Below, in pieces: positions 21,694 through 43,012 of a stretch of 64,000 nucleotides of DNA. A program made the position numbers and the translations under genes. The stretch is from Bacteroidales bacterium (GTDB lineage Bacteria > Bacteroidota > Bacteroidia > Bacteroidales > UBA10428): positions 143,457 through 207,456 of the forward strand of contig JAFGEO010000118.1 of the NCBI GenBank assembly GCA_016931575.1. Direction: 5' to 3'. The notes beneath the pieces are model-generated. The model was not told where the DNA came from. It saw nothing but the letters and a program-made list of their open reading frames with translations, and did no database searches. Numbering within the stretch: position 1 is the stretch's first letter; the number at the start of each line of letters is the position of its first letter.

Positions 21694-24660
21694 TTAATAC
21701 CTTGGATCCTTCCGCAATGGCAGCTTAGCCATTTTCTGTACCTCAATGCCCGGAAAACCAAACTCTTCAACAACTTTCCCAAGGATCAGGTAGATGCCCG
21801 GACCCCTGTATGGATATTTTTTCAGGGTATCCGGGAAGTTTACCACATCGAAAAATTCACCTTCTACATCGAGAAAACAACCGAAATGCATCCATTCCTT
21901 TTTAACTGTGCGCACGTTTTTGATGGTTACCAGGTTTCCGATAATGCGTATGGTTTTCCCGATGCTTTCCGGCAGGTGCCGTGAATATATGCAACCCCTG
22001 AATCGGGTTTCAAGCATATCAAACTGGGACATGGTAACCGGGAATCCGATGAGCTCCATTTCATCGTAGGCATCTTCAATGCTTTCCTGTTCCAGGGGCG
22101 GAAGGGAAAATTTGCGGGGCTTTTCGAAAAACAGGTTCCGGGAAGATGCGTTTGGCTTGCTCTTTCCCAGTAGCATATGCGCTTCCCAGAGGAGTTCCTT
22201 TTTTGTCTTTCCAGTAAAGCGCAAGGCATTCAGCCGGATGAGAATGACAATCTGTTCGTTGCCGATGGGTATGCGGCTGATAAAATCGGGGAGATCAAGG
22301 TATTCCCCCCTGGCCTCACGTTCATCGATGATATGATGGGCCAGCCTGGTTTCCAGTCCCTGGACATGAACAAAGCCAATGTATATGTCGCTTTCGTAAA
22401 TGGTGGTCAGGTACTCGCTTCGGTTAACGCAGGGCAGATTGATGGCCGCTCCGCTGCGCCTGGCTTCATTAAAGTAAACCCAGGTATGGTAGAATCCGCC
22501 AAAATTATTGATTACGGCTACCATGAACTCCCGGGGAAAGTAGGTCTTCAGGAAAAGACTCTGGTAGCTTTCTACGGCATAGGAAGCAGAGTGCGCTTTT
22601 GAAAAGGCATAGCCTGCAAAAGATTCGATCTGGCGCCAAACCTCCTGTGTGAGTTCGACACTATAGCCCCGGGTAGCACAATTATCGAAGAACTTACCCT
22701 GGATTTCACCGAATTCCTTACGGGAGCGAAACTTTCCGGCCATGGCACGGCGCAGGATGTCTGCATCGGAAAGGTCGAGGCCGGCAAAATGGTGACAGAT
22801 TTTAATGACATCTTCCTGGTAGACCATCACACCATAGGTTTCCTCCAGCTGTTCTTTCATGATCGGATGCAGGTAGCTGAAATTGTCAGGATGATGGTAA
22901 CGGTGGATGTATTCCTTCATCATGCCTGATTTGGCAACACCCGGCCGTATGATGGAGCTGGCAGCTACCAGGGTCAGGTAGTTGTCACAATGGAGTTTTT
23001 TAAGCAGGCCACGCATCGCAGGACTTTCAATGTAGAAGCAGCCTGTGGCTTCCCCGTTATACAGGCGGTGGTTTACAAGCTCATCGCGTTTGAATTCCGC
23101 GACATTGTGAACGTCGATCTTTTTCTTTTTATTTCGTAGGACCAGGTCTACACAGTCGTTGATATGTCCGATTCCCCGCTGGCTCAGAATATCGAGTTTC
23201 TCATACCGGAGGTTTTCGGCTACATACATATCCCACTGGGTTGTTGGCAGCCCTTTTGGGGGCAGGTCGAGGGCTGTATAACAGGTAATGGGATCTTCTG
23301 AGATCAGGATGCCTCCGGCATGTACGCTGCGGATGTTGGGAAAATTCACTACCTGGCTGCCCATCTGGAACAGCTCCTGTGTTATTTGATTCTGGGAGCT
23401 TTCATCGTCCGGATGGCGCACCAGCCGGTCGATCTCCTCCTTGGGAAGGCCCCGGACCTTGCCGAGCTCCCGGAGGATCGACCTGTCCTTGAAGGTAGTG
23501 ATGGTGCCCAGCAGGGCAGTATGCTCACGCCCATAGCGTTTGAAAATGTAATCCTGCACCTCGTCACGGTCGCGCCAGGAGTAGTCAATGTCGAAATCCG
23601 GCGGACTGGTACGTTTGGGATTAATGAAACGCTCGAAATAGAGGTTGAGCTCGATGGGATCAACGTCCGTGATCTTCAGGCAGTAGGCTACGATGCTGTT
23701 GGCGCCACTGCCCCGTCCGACATGGTAAAACCCGCGGCTCATGGTATAGCGGATAATGTCCCAGGTGATCAGGAAGTAAGAGGAAAACCCCAGCTTGTCG
23801 ATTACCTGTAACTCGTGCTGGATGCGCCGTTTAGCCTCTGCATTGCTCTTTCCGTAGCGATAGGCCATGCCGTCATAGGCCAGCTTTTCAAGCAGTAGCT
23901 TGTCATCGTAGCGGCTACCGGAGAAGACCTTTTTGTTTTTAACCGACTTGAAATCAAAATCGATGCCGCACATGCGGGTGAGGCGCTCCGTATTTTTTAA
24001 CAGAAAGGGGTAGTCTTCATAGGCTATGTGCAGCAGGTCCGGCGCCAGGAGCTGTTCGCCCTGTAAAGCGACATCTTCGGGTTTTAACTTGGTAAGGAGG
24101 GTGTTCAGGTCCACAGCCCGCAGGTACCGGTGCAGCTTGTAGTCTCCGTTCCCTGCCAGGGTTACGGGATGAAAGGCCACCAGCTTATGCTTCAGCTCCC
24201 GGAGGGGCGAGGATACCAGTCTTCGCACTTCCTCCGGACGGACACCCACATACTCCTGTTCCTTTAATCGCCTGGGAGGCTTCCCGGAAAAGGGATAGAT
24301 GGTCAGCACCTGTTGAAAAACAGGGGGACAGGGAGGGAGAGGGGTCTTGTTCAGGTTGTGCCAGGTAAGAAAATCGTTGATCTCTTTAAAACCTGTATTG
24401 TCCCTGGCAATGAGGGTGTAGAGCAAACGATGCCCCTGGTCCCTGAACTCGACCCCTCCGATGGGGTGTATGCCATGCCTCCTGCATTCAGCCACGAAAT
24501 CAACCATGCCAGTTGTGTTGTTGATGTCTGTGAGCGCAAGCACACCGATCCCCAGCCGGTTGGCTTCCTCAACCAATCGCGAAGGGGACATTGTCCCGTA
24601 GCGGAGACTGTAATATGTGTGGCAATTTAAGTACAAGGCAAAAGCATTAGGCAAAAGCAT
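21694..24660 (-). CDS. dnaE2: error-prone DNA polymerase, DnaE2/ImuC type (Pol III alpha paralogue)
   Basis: PHP domain (LNCHTYYSLRYGTMSPSRLVEEA...LALTDINN), catalytic PPDFDIDYS and the FSKAHSASYA finger region. At 988 aa it is too short for replicative DnaE. The start is uncertain: ATG 24660 lies inside a repeat, and TTG 24636 would give MYLNCH. Confidence 0.85.
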   Translation of the reverse strand: MLLPNAFALYLNCHTYYSLRYGTMSPSRLVEEANRLGIGVLALTDINNTTGMVDFVAECRRHGIHPIGGVEFRDQGHRLLYTLIARDNTGFKEINDFLTWHNLNKTPLPPCPPVFQQVLTIYPFSGKPPRRLKEQEYVGVRPEEVRRLVSSPLRELKHKLVAFHPVTLAGNGDYKLHRYLRAVDLNTLLTKLKPEDVALQGEQLLAPDLLHIAYEDYPFLLKNTERLTRMCGIDFDFKSVKNKKVFSGSRYDDKLLLEKLAYDGMAYRYGKSNAEAKRRIQHELQVIDKLGFSSYFLITWDIIRYTMSRGFYHVGRGSGANSIVAYCLKITDVDPIELNLYFERFINPKRTSPPDFDIDYSWRDRDEVQDYIFKRYGREHTALLGTITTFKDRSILRELGKVRGLPKEEIDRLVRHPDDESSQNQITQELFQMGSQVVNFPNIRSVHAGGILISEDPITCYTALDLPPKGLPTTQWDMYVAENLRYEKLDILSQRGIGHINDCVDLVLRNKKKKIDVHNVAEFKRDELVNHRLYNGEATGCFYIESPAMRGLLKKLHCDNYLTLVAASSIIRPGVAKSGMMKEYIHRYHHPDNFSYLHPIMKEQLEETYGVMVYQEDVIKICHHFAGLDLSDADILRRAMAGKFRSRKEFGEIQGKFFDNCATRGYSVELTQEVWRQIESFAGYAFSKAHSASYAVESYQSLFLKTYFPREFMVAVINNFGGFYHTWVYFNEARRSGAAINLPCVNRSEYLTTIYESDIYIGFVHVQGLETRLAHHIIDEREARGEYLDLPDFISRIPIGNEQIVILIRLNALRFTGKTKKELLWEAHMLLGKSKPNASSRNLFFEKPRKFSLPPLEQESIEDAYDEMELIGFPVTMSQFDMLETRFRGCIYSRHLPESIGKTIRIIGNLVTIKNVRTVKKEWMHFGCFLDVEGEFFDVVNFPDTLKKYPYRGPGIYLILGKVVEEFGFPGIEVQKMAKLPLRKDPRY

Positions 24661-24698
24661 TAGGCAAAAGCATTAGGCAAAAGGTAAATGGCAAAAGC
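24637..24698. repeat. 13-nt tandem repeat (ggcaaaagcatta) x3 perfect copies plus 2 degenerate copies
   Basis: Perfect copies at 24637-24649, 24650-24662 and 24663-24675. Degenerate copies at 24676-24689 and 24690-24698. Each perfect copy carries an ATG on the dnaE2 coding strand. Confidence 0.9.
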
Positions 24699-25026
24699 TC
24701 AATGAAGAAACAGCCTGCATTTATCCGGCACCATGCCTGTAAAAAGGATTCCACCCTTCCATACTAACTACCACAAAAAATTTTAACTGAACAGCTTTAA
24801 ACTGCAACTTGTAATCAGGTAGTAAATACGCAATGCACCGTAAATCACATATTGACAGCTTCTTCGCCTGACAGCATAGGAGTTCGAAGAGAAATTTCAA
24901 CAACACCCTGCCCTGCGGATTAATAATAGCATCGCGTCTCTATCGAAAATCCTTGTCACTTATGATCGGTCAGTAAAGCGTAATGCATAGCGTCTTTTCC
25001 GAACAACAATAATCACTTAAAACTGA

Positions 25027-25200
25027 TCATCCAAAGGGTTCCGGGTTCTGTGTGATTAACAGCCCTTTGTAGCTACCCCGGCTCAGCAGGGTGTGGATAC
25101 GGTTCACGAGCTTTTCGTAGCTCAGTTTCTGGAATTCTGAAGGGATGTCGAACTTAGTCCACCCCTTGTCCTGCCTGGAAATGTATACCTGTGTTTTCAT
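25027..25200 (-). CDS. 57-aa hypothetical protein, first gene behind the palindromic boxes upstream of dnaE2
   Basis: Hand translation: MKTQVYISRQDKGWTKFDIPSEFQKLSYEKLVNRIHTLLSRGSYKGLLITQNPEPFG, stop TGA at 25029-25027. It is below the 60-aa track cutoff. Its G+C resembles dnaE2 rather than the AT-rich flank. Confidence 0.45.
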   Translation of the reverse strand: MKTQVYISRQDKGWTKFDIPSEFQKLSYEKLVNRIHTLLSRGSYKGLLITQNPEPFG

Positions 25201-25207
25201 AGTTATA

Positions 25208-25246
25208 TGATTATAATATAATCAAATCAGAGATTATAATATAAGA
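25208..25246 (-). promoter_or_regulatory. two palindromic boxes (candidate SOS/LexA-like operator)
   Basis: tgattata-a-tataatca (25208-25224) is a perfect 8+1+8 palindrome. agattataatataaga (25231-25246) is identical to 42081-42096. Both lie 8-46 nt upstream of ATG 25200. Confidence 0.5.
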
Positions 25247-25521
25247 AATATTTTTATAAAGTGTATGTTTTTTTTATTTTTATTACATCCGCCAGGCATG
25301 ATGTCCTTGAGTTAACTTGCTTTATACCTCTTCGTTTTATCCTTATCTGTTAGCGTATTGCTCAGGGACATAATTCTATTTCGTACAATTCTTGACTTTG
25401 CATAATTCTGCTAAAATCACCATCCGGGTTTTTATGTCCACCCCAAAACTTTGTTTTAATGGCAGCTGGTTAATTGAAATCAATCTAAATAAGCTCTAAA
25501 TAATCCATTTTTAATTGGAAT

Positions 25522-25576
25522 CGTGTGCGTACACGGAGCAATTTACTATATTTGCATCCTTCCGTGTACGCACACG
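25522..25576 (+). promoter_or_regulatory. perfect 16-nt inverted repeat bracketing the lacI-family promoter (candidate operators)
   Basis: cgtgtgcgtacacgga (25522-25537) and tccgtgtacgcacacg (25561-25576) are exact reverse complements separated by 23 nt. Each arm has internal cgtgt...acacg symmetry. Confidence 0.6.
25547..25554 (+). promoter_or_regulatory. Bacteroidota-type -7 promoter box (TAnnTTTG)
   Basis: tatatttg lies in the spacer of the inverted repeat, 50 nt upstream of ATG 25604. Confidence 0.45.
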
Positions 25577-25603
25577 GAGAACTGCATAAAGTGTACTTTC
25601 TTT

Positions 25604-40684: not shown

Positions 40685-40900
40685 TTAAGGTATTACCACG
40701 CAATTTTCGCTTCGTAATAACCGACAGTTATCAACAAGTAAAGAACACTTAAATTTAAGTTGATTATCAATGGCTTCCAATGTTTTTTTGGTGAATGGTA
40801 TAATACCATAGGTAAAATGGGGTATGTCCGGAGTTAACAGATCCCGGCCGCCAGATTGGAGTTTATTGACTGGCAGCCTAAAAGTCTTAACGCCTTTCAC
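40685..40900 (-). CDS. 71-aa hypothetical ORF translationally coupled to dinB
   Basis: The GTG start overlaps the dinB TGA stop (GTGA, 40897-40900). No recognisable motif, and lower G+C than dinB. Confidence 0.3.
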   Translation of the reverse strand: MKGVKTFRLPVNKLQSGGRDLLTPDIPHFTYGIIPFTKKTLEAIDNQLKFKCSLLVDNCRLLRSENCVVIP

Positions 40901-42075
40901 AACCCCACCGCCCGCCGTACTGATCGCCTTCCATACCTTTTTCGCAGCATATCCATTGCTTTATAAAGGTTGACAGTTTTTGGGGTGTCTTCAAACATAT
41001 TGAGCTGCTGGACACCCTGCACCAGGTGACTGAACCGCACGCCGATGAGGCGGATGAGCATACGGCGCTGGTACAGCCGGTCAAACAGTTCCTTGGTTAC
41101 TTCCAGCAGCTGATGGTCGAAGGCTGTATAGGGAATGCGTTGCTGCAGGGTGTGTGTGTCGAAGTTTGAATAGCGGATCTTTACGGTGATACAGGAGGCG
41201 AGGCGTTGTTTCTTCCGCAGTTCAAAGGCCAGTTTTTCCACCATGCTGATCAGTAATTCCCGCATTTTTACCACATCGATTGAATCCTGGTCGAAAGTTT
41301 GTTCGGTACTGATCGATTTTCGTTCCGAATAGGGCCTGACGGGCGTATTATCGATACCGTTCGCCTTTTCCCAGATAGCAATGCCGTTCTTTCCCAGTAC
41401 TTTTTCGATCATTTCAGGGGGAATCTGGCTGAGGGTTCCAATGGAGGCGATGCCCATAGAACGCAACAAGTGGTAAGTCTTTTTACCGATCATGGGGATC
41501 TTGCTGATGGGCAGGGGGTGGAGGAAAGGAAGCACGCCCTGGAGCGGCACCTCCTTTTCTCCGTTGGGTTTGGCCTCGCCGGTGGCGATCTTGGAAACGG
41601 TTTTGTTGACCGAGAGTCCGAAGGATATGGGTAATCCCGTGTTCCGGATAACGGACTCCCGTAGTTCGTGCGTCCACTTCAGACAGCCGAAAAAACGGTC
41701 CATGCCGGTTACGTCAATATAAAACTCATCGATAGAGGCCTTTTCATAAAGCGGGGCCTTCTCGGTAATGACATCGGAAACCAGGTGCGAGTAACGCGAG
41801 TACAACTCCATGTCGCCACGGATAAAAATGGCATCGTTGCACAGCATGCGTGCCATCTTCATGGGCATGGCCGAATGTACGCCATATGTCCTCGCTTCAT
41901 AGCTGCAGCTTGATACAACACCCCGGTCCGACATTCCTCCGATAATTACCGGTTTTCCTACCAGTTTACTGTTTACCAGTCGCTCAACAGATACAAAAAA
42001 TGTATCCAGGTCGAGGTGTACAACATTCCGGTTCCCTATATTTTCACGCACCATCTCCGACGATATTATAATCAT
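40897..42075 (-). CDS. dinB: Y-family DNA polymerase IV
   Basis: VVHLDLDTFFVSVE and ASIDEFYIDVT catalytic motifs, SFGLSVNKTVSKIATGEAKPNG, and HPLPISKIPMIGKKT (HhH). The start may be the second Met (MVRENIG, 42054). Confidence 0.9.
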   Translation of the reverse strand: MIIISSEMVRENIGNRNVVHLDLDTFFVSVERLVNSKLVGKPVIIGGMSDRGVVSSCSYEARTYGVHSAMPMKMARMLCNDAIFIRGDMELYSRYSHLVSDVITEKAPLYEKASIDEFYIDVTGMDRFFGCLKWTHELRESVIRNTGLPISFGLSVNKTVSKIATGEAKPNGEKEVPLQGVLPFLHPLPISKIPMIGKKTYHLLRSMGIASIGTLSQIPPEMIEKVLGKNGIAIWEKANGIDNTPVRPYSERKSISTEQTFDQDSIDVVKMRELLISMVEKLAFELRKKQRLASCITVKIRYSNFDTHTLQQRIPYTAFDHQLLEVTKELFDRLYQRRMLIRLIGVRFSHLVQGVQQLNMFEDTPKTVNLYKAMDMLRKRYGRRSVRRAVGL

Positions 42076-42096
42076 TTATCAGATTATAATATAAGA
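42062..42096. promoter_or_regulatory. palindromic boxes in the dinB / lexA-like divergent region (candidate SOS operator)
   Basis: agattataatataaga (42081-42096) is identical to 25231-25246. gatattataatc (42062-42073) contains the same TATAATC half-site in the opposite sense. Confidence 0.5.
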
Positions 42097-42100
42097 TCAA

Positions 42101-42142
42101 TTGATTAAATAAACAACAAATACTTGCTTATTATTTAATCAA
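42101..42142. promoter_or_regulatory. 12-nt perfect inverted repeat upstream of the lexA-like gene
   Basis: ttgattaaataa (42101-42112) and ttatttaatcaa (42131-42142) are separated by 18 nt. The right arm overlaps a near-consensus -7 box (tcaatttg). Confidence 0.45.
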
Positions 42143-42181
42143 TTTGTAATATTGTGTATTGAAATATCAATAACAGATACA

Positions 42182-43012
42182 ATGAAAATACATTTCAGCA
42201 ACAACATCAAGTTCCTTCGCAAACGCAAAGGATATACCCAGGACGAAGTAGCTGAAAACCTGGGAATGAAGCGTTCTACACTGAGCGGAATTGAAAATGA
42301 AGTCAGCCAGCCTACTATCTCGGCACTGCTGACTTTCTCCAAGTTCTATAAAGTTGCTATTGATACACTTCTGAATGTCGACTTGCAGAAATTATCGGAG
42401 CTCCAGTTGCGGCAGTTGGAGCACGGCGAGGATGTATTTATTAAAGGAGGCCGGCTCCGGGTGCTTGCTACAACGGTCAATGCTGATAATGACGAAAACA
42501 TTGAACTGGTTGCCGAAAAGGCTAAGGCCGGTTATGCTACCGGCTTTGCAGATCCGGAATTCATCAGTCAGCTGCCGACCTTTCAGCTTCCTTTTCTTTC
42601 CAAACAGAAAAAATACCGGACCTTCCAGCTAAGCGGCGATTCTATGTTGCCCATTCCTGATAAATCATGGGTTACGGCTGAATACCTGCAGGACTGGAGC
42701 CAGATTGTCTCAGGGGAAGCTTATGTGGTCTTTACACTTGACGACGGGATTGTCTTTAAAGTGGCTGAAAACATGATCAAAGAGGAGGGGAAAGTCAGGC
42801 TCTACTCGCTGAATCCTCTCTACGAACCCTATGATATCCAGGTATCTGAGATTAAGGAAATATGGAAATTTGTCCACTTCATCAGTAAGGAAATCCCCGA
42901 ACCTATGCTCCCTCAGGATGAACTTCTGAAAACGGTTGCCAGCCTGAAAAGTGATATGGATAAGATGAAAAGGCAAATGCTCAGACCCGGGATTAGTAAA
43001 GATCCTGCATAA
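42182..43012 (+). CDS. CI-type HTH / S24 peptidase repressor (non-canonical LexA-like)
   Basis: XRE HTH (IKFLRKRKGYTQDEVAENLGMKRSTLSGIENE), an Ala-Gly candidate self-cleavage site (KAKAGYATG), and the Ser-Lys dyad contexts LSGDSMLP and IVFKV. The track ORF starts at TTG 42152; ATG 42182 is preferred. Confidence 0.8.
   Translation: MKIHFSNNIKFLRKRKGYTQDEVAENLGMKRSTLSGIENEVSQPTISALLTFSKFYKVAIDTLLNVDLQKLSELQLRQLEHGEDVFIKGGRLRVLATTVNADNDENIELVAEKAKAGYATGFADPEFISQLPTFQLPFLSKQKKYRTFQLSGDSMLPIPDKSWVTAEYLQDWSQIVSGEAYVVFTLDDGIVFKVAENMIKEEGKVRLYSLNPLYEPYDIQVSEIKEIWKFVHFISKEIPEPMLPQDELLKTVASLKSDMDKMKRQMLRPGISKDPA

Follow-up and report, generated by a model that had tools for sequence, protein, structure and literature searches.

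Paired GATTA-N5-TAATC palindromes are probable operators of a non-canonical LexA repressor at two DNA polymerase loci of a Bacteroidales genome

Paired palindromic boxes stand ahead of two DNA polymerase loci in a 64-kb stretch of a Bacteroidales genome (hereafter the window, meaning the whole of that stretch), and our analysis indicates that they are very probably operators of the only non-canonical LexA repressor that the genome encodes, the product of the gene at 42182-43012. We put the probability of this reading, which rests on sequence comparison, at roughly 0.85. The polymerase cassette is split in this genome, with dnaE2 lying behind an open reading frame (ORF) of 57 amino acids (aa) and about 16 kb from dinB. 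We found that the conserved operator is a 15-bp palindrome, GATTA-N5-TAATC, which occurs in pairs with 8 to 9 nucleotides (nt) between the boxes and 23 to 24 bp between their centers. The original prediction for this DNA had proposed that boxes upstream of the small ORF are operators of the 42182-43012 repressor and unite both polymerase loci, and this proposal now has computational support from the conservation of the boxes, their placement, and their ranking by a scoring matrix. What the prediction had missed was a second box at dinB, a pair at the repressor gene, a site at recA outside the window, and the true conserved unit. The host genome comprises 4,824,774 bp in 168 contigs, with a GC content of 45%.

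At the small-ORF/dnaE2 unit, the proximal operator, GATTATAATATAATC (25209-25223), is a perfect GATTA-N5-TAATC that ends 8 nt before the ATG at 25200, and the distal operator, GATTATAATATAAGA (25232-25246), has one perfect arm and TAAGA instead of TAATC as the other. Rereading the sequence confirmed that TGATTATAATATAATCA at 25208-25224 is a perfect 8+1+8 palindrome, that AGATTATAATATAAGA lies at 25231-25246, and that both boxes are no more than 46 nt from the ATG at 25200 on the minus strand. The motif originally drawn from them, GATTATA-N-TATAATC with a TTATA-A-TATAA core, is ruled out as the conserved unit, which is really GATTA-N5-TAATC: only the GATTA and TAATC arms are fixed among relatives, and the central five positions vary. 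Our operator matrix was built from 39 distinct boxes taken solely from the repressor promoters of other genomes. In this matrix, the five outer positions on each side hold nearly all of the information and the central five positions are A/T-rich and variable; because the information sits in the arms, the TTATA-A-TATAA core is largely a variable spacer. The distal box of the dnaE2 unit scores 10.9 bits, and the pair, at 34.0 bits, is the second-best pair of the genome. A repeat search likewise picks out the two boxes, as a 13-nt direct repeat, GATTATAATATAA, at 23-nt spacing. A perfect box also precedes the small-ORF homologue in the related loci L079, L081, L082, L083, L091, L092, and L099, and at the place of the distal box the small-ORF promoters of relatives carry TATTATATTATAATC.

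The primary promoter consensus of Bacteroidota is TAnnTTTG, not TATAAT. The 8-nt spacer between the two boxes (25224-25231, minus strand) reads tctgattt and, with the G of the proximal box, ends in TTTG; this TTTG at the junction of spacer and proximal box is a candidate -7 element of the Bacteroidota type. The near -7 box ctgatttg (25223-25230, minus strand) that had been pointed out between the palindromes keeps its place as a candidate, and it consists of spacer sequence plus the first G of the proximal box. Among related small-ORF promoters, a TTT(T)G touching the proximal box is kept in 8 of 10.

Two further pairs lie between dinB (40897-42075, minus strand) and the repressor gene. The dinB-proximal operator, GACGATATTATAATC (minus strand GATTATAATATCGTC; 42059-42073), scores 16.8 bits, has the G of the 42075 ATG as its first base, and makes up a perfect 11-nt inverted repeat together with 42082-42092. 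Should translation instead begin at the alternative ATG at 42054, this box would lie upstream of the start codon by 4 nt; in the related locus L001, a perfect box lies 3 nt from the dinB ATG. The dinB-distal operator, GATTATAATATAAGA (42082-42096), is identical to the distal box at 25232-25246, in agreement with the earlier report of an identical 16-mer at 42081-42096, whose distance from the dinB start codon (42075, minus strand) is 5 to 6 nt by our reading. The dinB pair, at 27.7 bits, ranks third genome-wide. On the repressor side, the distal operator, GATTAAATAAACAAC (42103-42117), is half-degenerate with a perfect outer arm, and the proximal operator, GCTTATTATTTAATC (42126-42140; 16.5 bits), overlaps a -7-like box, TCAATTTG (42139-42146), which was assigned from the sequence and lies 36 nt before the repressor ATG. 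Together, the two repressor-gene boxes read GATTA-N28-TAATC, an arrangement that is also found in the closest relatives, L001 and L002. All three pairs in the window, at the dnaE2 unit, dinB, and the repressor gene, have an 8-nt spacer.

Within the genome the boxes are specific. Across the 4,824,774 bp there are exactly three copies of the 13-mer GATTATAATATAA, all of them at the dnaE2-unit and dinB loci, compared with a composition-based expectation of about 0.4; because it is confined to these two loci at this excess, the boxes do not look like chance. The top three single matches to the matrix were the proximal box of the dnaE2 unit (25209-25223; 23.1 bits), a box upstream of a Zn-ribbon gene (22.3 bits), and a box upstream of recA (21.4 bits). 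The recA box, GATTATAATCTAATC, lies on contig C98, outside the window, 34 nt upstream of recA. A scan for two boxes 8 to 9 nt apart returned five sites in 4.8 Mb: one on contig C116, those at the small-ORF/dnaE2 unit, at dinB, and at the repressor's own promoter, and a weak unannotated site on contig C6. Seven control matrices (reversed, complemented, and five column permutations) gave zero to one pair and zero to two matches of at least 20 bits. The perfect GATTA-N5-TAATC has four copies in the genome versus about eight expected by composition, and none is within a coding body. One perfect match, at C12:10012, overlaps the tuf stop codon and was set aside as probably a chance occurrence, as were near matches to the 15-mer, which lie mostly inside coding regions. 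A genome-wide search for CTAA-N5-TTAG, GGA-N5-TCC, and TTAC-N5-GTAA placed none of these motifs upstream of dinB, dnaE2, recA, or the repressor gene.

Conservation in relatives supports the same picture. We assembled 78 loci with repressor homologues (38 to 80% identity) from Bacteroidales metagenome-assembled genomes, Marinilabiliaceae, Draconibacterium, Maribellus, and Geofilum, and 80 loci with DnaE2 homologues, and we surveyed 401 evenly sampled genomes of the order from 236 genera. A box pair lies within 400 nt upstream of the repressor homologue in 48 of 74 loci, with three or fewer arm mismatches in about 40, and the two boxes are separated by 8 nt in 24 cases, by 9 nt in 22, and by 6 nt and 10 nt in one each. 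Where the divergent region between repressor gene and dinB is complete, a box scoring 15 bits or more is present in 44 of 45 regions and a pair in 37 of 45; the density of boxes in these regions is about 430 times that in the rest of the loci. About 15 loci have a pair that lies apart from the repressor gene and immediately precedes dnaE2 or a small-ORF homologue with dnaE2 behind it. The nearest relatives (L079 to L083 and L086, with 72 to 79% DnaE2 identity) have the order found in the window, two boxes 8 or 9 nt apart followed by the small ORF and dnaE2, and L091 and L092 hold both pairs within one locus. The ancestral layout was probably a repressor gene diverging from dinB-dnaE2 with a pair between them. 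In the order-wide survey, a perfect pair was present in 42 of the 401 genomes and 32 of the 236 genera, usually once per genome, and the reversed control pattern was present in none of the 401.

The three closest genomes also have a box before recA, at positions -32 to -37 (GATTATTATTTAATC, GATTATCATTTAATC, and GATTATGAAATAATC). Across the recA boxes TGATTAT..A..TAATCA is invariant, and the spacer and flanks have diverged. In more distant relatives, recA is fused behind bcp without a box, so the recruitment of recA is clade specific. The operator arms in turn vary by repressor subclade: L052, L054, L055, L056, and L064 have the GATAA type and L195 has the GACTA type, and in L057 to L061, L076, L029, L036, and L039 only the TAATC arms are kept, leaving a direct-repeat-like TAATC-N18-TAATC.

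The repressor itself (42182-43012, plus strand; 276 aa) has an Xre/CI-type helix-turn-helix (HTH) domain and an S24 self-cleaving peptidase domain. Both Pfam matches are above their cutoffs (HTH_3, 5.4e-13; Peptidase_S24, 6.7e-08, with 32.7 bits against a cutoff of 23.3), and the winged-helix domain of LexA, PF01726 (LexA_DNA_bind), has no Pfam match in the protein. A tblastn search found this repressor as the single HTH/S24 homologue in the genome. Twenty homologues share the residues A116-G117, S154 (within GDSM), and K193 without exception. Sequence and profile searches against the PDB reached HTH proteins only and not the S24 domain. The AlphaFold model (pLDDT 71) has two good domains, with five N-terminal helices, and its best-ranked Foldseek matches are a lambda-186 hybrid repressor, in first place, and full-length LexA. 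The C-terminal domains of LexA superpose with a root-mean-square deviation of 2.3 to 2.6 Å over about 95 columns and a UmuD chain with 3.8 Å, and the N-terminal domain matches SinR, ImmR, and P22 c2 at 1.1 to 1.4 Å.

A link between this protein and the boxes comes from the recognition helix. Repressors with the helix KRSTLSGYEN go with GATTA arms, and those with KRTT[IV]NA[LI]EN go with GATAA arms in five of five loci; the latter are five Maribellus and Draconibacterium regulators whose operators read GATAA-N5-TTATC or GATAA-N5-TAATC. This covariation of arm and helix lends indirect support to the assignment of the boxes to the repressor. A second Maribellus paralogue has GACTATAATTTAGTC upstream, which is an ACTA-TAATT-TAGT palindrome. 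Within the homologue set, the gene of Geofilum rubicundum JCM 15548 (L051/L190) has an in-frame TAG and the Maribellus paralogue L196 an in-frame TAA; either stop codon may mark a pseudogene or come from a sequencing error.

The regulation of DNA damage genes by repressors of this kind has been described in other Bacteroidetes, where non-canonical LexA proteins recognize two motifs, GGA-N5-TCC as well as CTAA-N5-TTAG (Sanchez-Osuna et al., NAR 2021, PMC8565304). In that study, the homologous repressors bound dyad-N5-dyad palindromes in electrophoretic mobility shift assays and their targets were induced by mitomycin C, and both ortholog groups were stated to be absent from Bacteroidales (PMC8565304). 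The tree in the same paper labels regulators of Draconibacterium, Prolixibacteraceae, Labilibaculum, Salinivirga, and Dysgonomonas as members of the CTAA group, and the protein clade is for that reason already known; homologues of the window repressor in Draconibacterium and Prolixibacteraceae taxa have about 55% identity to it. In Table S10 of that paper, the perfect palindrome ACTA-TAATT-TAGT of Draconibacterium sp. M1 is entered, unvalidated, as a putative diverged site, and the main text has no GATTA motif (PMC8565304). A later paper on a Bacteroidales SOS motif was not found in the literature searched. When the boxes are compared with the published motifs, as the original prediction had suggested, the dyad-N5-dyad design is the same and the sequence matches neither GGA-N5-TCC nor CTAA-N5-TTAG.

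The closest likeness is to the group recognizing CTAA-N5-TTAG (e.g., Pontibacter actiniarum WP_025606010.1), with which the system shares the CI/Xre-type HTH, the S24 domain, the Ala-Gly site, and the Ser/Lys residues, as well as a palindromic operator of dyad-N5-dyad design, autoregulation, promoters that frequently hold at least two sites, and control both of recA and of dinB in company with a gene for polymerase III alpha. Unlike that group, the system described here has GATTA/TAATC arms, near-fixed pairs 8 to 9 nt apart, and a very small regulon. A paralogue of Elizabethkingia anophelis (WP_078407279.1, TTAC-AAATT-GTAA; PMC8565304) provides a precedent for a shift of the dyad with N5 kept; like the repressor gene here, it is divergent from an error-prone polymerase gene, and that regulator is mitomycin C induced. 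It differs in its dyad and in its origin in Weeksellaceae paralogy, whereas the repressor here is single copy and has a motif that is found in a broad set of genera. On domain architecture, catalytic residues, operator layout, autoregulation, and targets, all of which fit, the locus belongs to the non-canonical LexA family, with motif arms that differ.

The CI repressor of phage λ binds 17-bp operators whose centers at OR1-OR2 are about 24 bp apart, shows pairwise cooperativity through its C-terminal domain, and undergoes RecA-stimulated self-cleavage. The system in the window resembles CI at OR1-OR2 in its CI-like HTH and S24 domains, in its centers 23 to 24 bp (about two helical turns) apart, and in its pairing of strong and weak sites. 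It differs from CI in that the operators are 15 bp long and of a different sequence and in that the repressor is chromosomal and associated with repair genes, with no lysis-lysogeny switch. There is also a likeness to the imuA-imuB-dnaE2 cassette under canonical LexA in Proteobacteria and Actinobacteria, in which a damage-inducible second polymerase III alpha subunit is coregulated with a Y-family polymerase by an S24 repressor, as predicted here; unlike that cassette, the locus here has no PF01726 and no ImuA, and its Y-family protein scores as polymerase IV (Pol IV) rather than as an inactive ImuB.

These comparisons suggest a model in which we infer the binding, its cooperativity, repression rather than activation, RecA-dependent cleavage, and induction by DNA damage. 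Each 15-bp palindrome would be bound by one repressor dimer, and two dimers would bind adjacent boxes cooperatively. Cooperative binding is suggested by the fixed distance of 23 to 24 bp between centers and by the pairing of a perfect box with a half-degenerate one, and it would in turn explain why one box of a pair can be half-degenerate. At the dnaE2 unit, transcription is predicted to start inside the proximal box, with the distal box covering the -33 region; since the pair flanks the TTTG and extends to within 8 nt of the start codon, a repressor sitting on it would block RNA polymerase. Occlusion of this kind would also operate at dinB, at the repressor's own promoter in the form of autoregulation, and at recA on another contig. 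When DNA is damaged, self-cleavage would be set off by RecA filaments, with the Ser154/Lys193 dyad cutting at Ala116-Gly117. This would free the operators and switch on a compact SOS regulon consisting of the small ORF with DnaE2, Pol IV, RecA, the repressor itself, and perhaps a Zn-ribbon protein.

Several observations weigh against this interpretation. Since repressor promoters supplied the matrix, the scores between repressor gene and dinB are in part circular; the evidence free of this circularity consists of the dnaE2-unit sites, the recA sites, and the sites of this genome. The window's own repressor promoter has a degenerate pair only (3.0 + 16.5 bits), and the distal box at recA is weak. 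The -7/-33 promoter elements are putative assignments made by eye. The AlphaFold model is moderate, with the linker and cleavage-site region below a pLDDT of 50. An enrichment upstream of repair genes, for which the original prediction proposed a search, was seen at recA, dinB, dnaE2, and the repressor gene but not at other recognizable repair genes, none of which, as judged from reading the downstream proteins and family scanning some of them, has a match of at least 12 bits within 200 nt upstream; the regulon is therefore small.

Each of the other explanations that we weighed accounts for part of these data. The boxes in the window carry TATAAT on both strands, and a sigma-70-type scan flags -10-like hexamers, as would be the case if the boxes were themselves promoter elements (-10-like or A/T-rich UP elements for an alternative sigma factor) or if some protein besides the S24 repressor bound them. 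We consider this very unlikely, as TATAAT is not conserved (the spacers of relatives read GTTTT, AAAAT, and AATTT, and the GATTA/TAATC arms are invariant), the primary Bacteroidota promoter has TAnnTTTG instead, and the motif follows the repressor's own promoter in about 40 genomes, with arms that covary with the recognition helix. That the palindromes are functionless, having arisen by chance in AT-rich DNA or by local duplication, has next to no probability in our estimation: intergenic DNA is 61% A+T and the two identical 16-mers could reflect copying, but the 13-mer occurs only at these loci, control matrices yield zero to one pair against five, the reversed pattern is found in 0 of 401 genomes against 42, and the boxes are kept across genomes whose flanks have diverged.

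The repressor could also bind the boxes without sensing DNA damage, as a constitutive or other regulator, as an activator, or as the immunity repressor of a mobile module. The repressor-dinB-dnaE2 cassette is compact and rearranged between genomes, the N-terminal domain resembles those of the repressors ImmR, SinR, and P22 c2 of phages and integrative and conjugative elements, and the authors of the 2021 study stated that activation cannot be formally excluded (PMC8565304). Against this, homologues of 38 to 80% identity all keep the cleavage residues (Ala-Gly, Ser, and Lys), recA, a core SOS gene on another contig, carries a box in four genomes, the boxes overlap start codons and -7-like elements in positions typical of repression, and homologues are mitomycin C induced (PMC8565304). 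We regard a repressor blind to DNA damage as very unlikely and favor the reading of the boxes as operators of a damage-responsive non-canonical LexA.

The extent of the regulon was read from the proteins downstream of intergenic matches of at least 12 bits, among which only the Zn-ribbon and SocA_Panacea proteins were family scanned. The best-scoring pair of the genome, GATTAAAATTTAATC-N9-GATAATATTTTAAAC at C116:7737-7775, lies 15 nt upstream of a gene for an 87-aa Zn_ribbon_2 (PF12674) protein and 114 nt upstream of one for an MFS transporter. The Zn-ribbon gene may be an extra member of the regulon; a search of 30 relatives gave no homologue of it. A lone box, GATAAGATTATAATC (18.5 bits; C64:94722-94736), abuts the ATG of a gene for a 145-aa SocA_Panacea (PF13274) antitoxin-like protein. 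Another homologue of Y-family polymerases, with 31% identity to the dinB product of the window, is encoded at C98:85908-86921 (minus strand), about 1.7 kb from recA beyond bcp, and no box of at least 12 bits lies within 200 nt upstream of it.

The polymerase genes downstream of the boxes are of the kinds that the original prediction had assumed. The DnaE2-like protein (21694-24660, minus strand; 988 aa), encoded by the downstream gene of the small-ORF/dnaE2 unit, is a second DNA polymerase III alpha subunit with Pfam PHP, DNA_pol3_alpha, finger, and HHH_6 domains, and its NCBIfam matches are polymerase III alpha and error-prone polymerase models. The dinB product (392 aa), a Y-family DNA polymerase IV, has the Pfam IMS and IMS_C domains and scores 277.6 bits with the NCBIfam DNA polymerase IV model PRK02406 (cutoff 256). 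The region of the dnaE2 start codon (24629-24707) is spanned by a 13-nt tandem repeat of AAGCATTAGGCAA-like units, which also reads in register as four 26-nt copies. A palindrome at the start of a LacI-family gene (25520-25578) gives weak, sub-threshold Rfam microRNA matches that are artifacts of its long inverted repeat, and apart from these spurious matches no Rfam family was found at the boxes in either region.

The first gene of the unit, the 57-aa ORF (25027-25200, minus strand), has no match in Pfam or NCBIfam, and its conservation indicates that it is a real gene for a small conserved protein. Its homologues include L079:1155-1331, L081:2315-2491, L082:598-774, and L083:2309-2485, among others, and the gene always follows the box pair and precedes dnaE2. 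In an alignment of nine sequences, G13, W14, I49, T50, N52, and P53 are invariant (GW...ITxNP), and a profile search with the family returned 62 clusters at an E value of 0.001 or less, mostly proteins of 58 to 118 aa. The small ORF adjoins dnaE2 in relatives and is 366 nt away from it in the window. A terminator scan found no terminator-like site in this gap, and since the genes also abut in relatives, cotranscription of the small ORF and dnaE2 is likely. The 57-aa protein is a candidate accessory factor of DnaE2 in genomes where ImuA and ImuB are not encoded beside dnaE2.

The control of error-prone polymerases by an S24 repressor was known before; what is new here is the GATTA-N5-TAATC motif, its pairing, the regulon, and the breadth of its occurrence, with about 10% of the sampled genomes of the order Bacteroidales (GTDB) carrying a perfect pair. 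The SOS response of Bacteroidota was worked out in 2021 for two motifs, and diverged paralogues were left with untested palindromes; the locus described here offers a testable third operator sequence, a fixed paired geometry, and a compact regulon. In its broadest form, which we hold only tentatively and at somewhat less than even odds, the proposal is that GATTA-N5-TAATC would represent a third major operator class, with obligatory λ-like cooperative pairs, that defines the SOS response of a broad range of mostly uncultured Bacteroidales lineages, can be tuned through a few residues of the recognition helix (GATTA, GATAA, and GACTA), and in one clade also drives the conserved, unannotated 57-aa protein, which would stand in for ImuA and ImuB beside DnaE2. 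The natural series in which helix and operator vary together would lend itself to a dissection of specificity among these repressors, and the 57-aa protein is flagged as a candidate new component of the DnaE2 mutasome. Recognition of the paired operator would allow damage-inducible mutagenesis genes to be annotated in hundreds of genomes of uncultured Bacteroidales.

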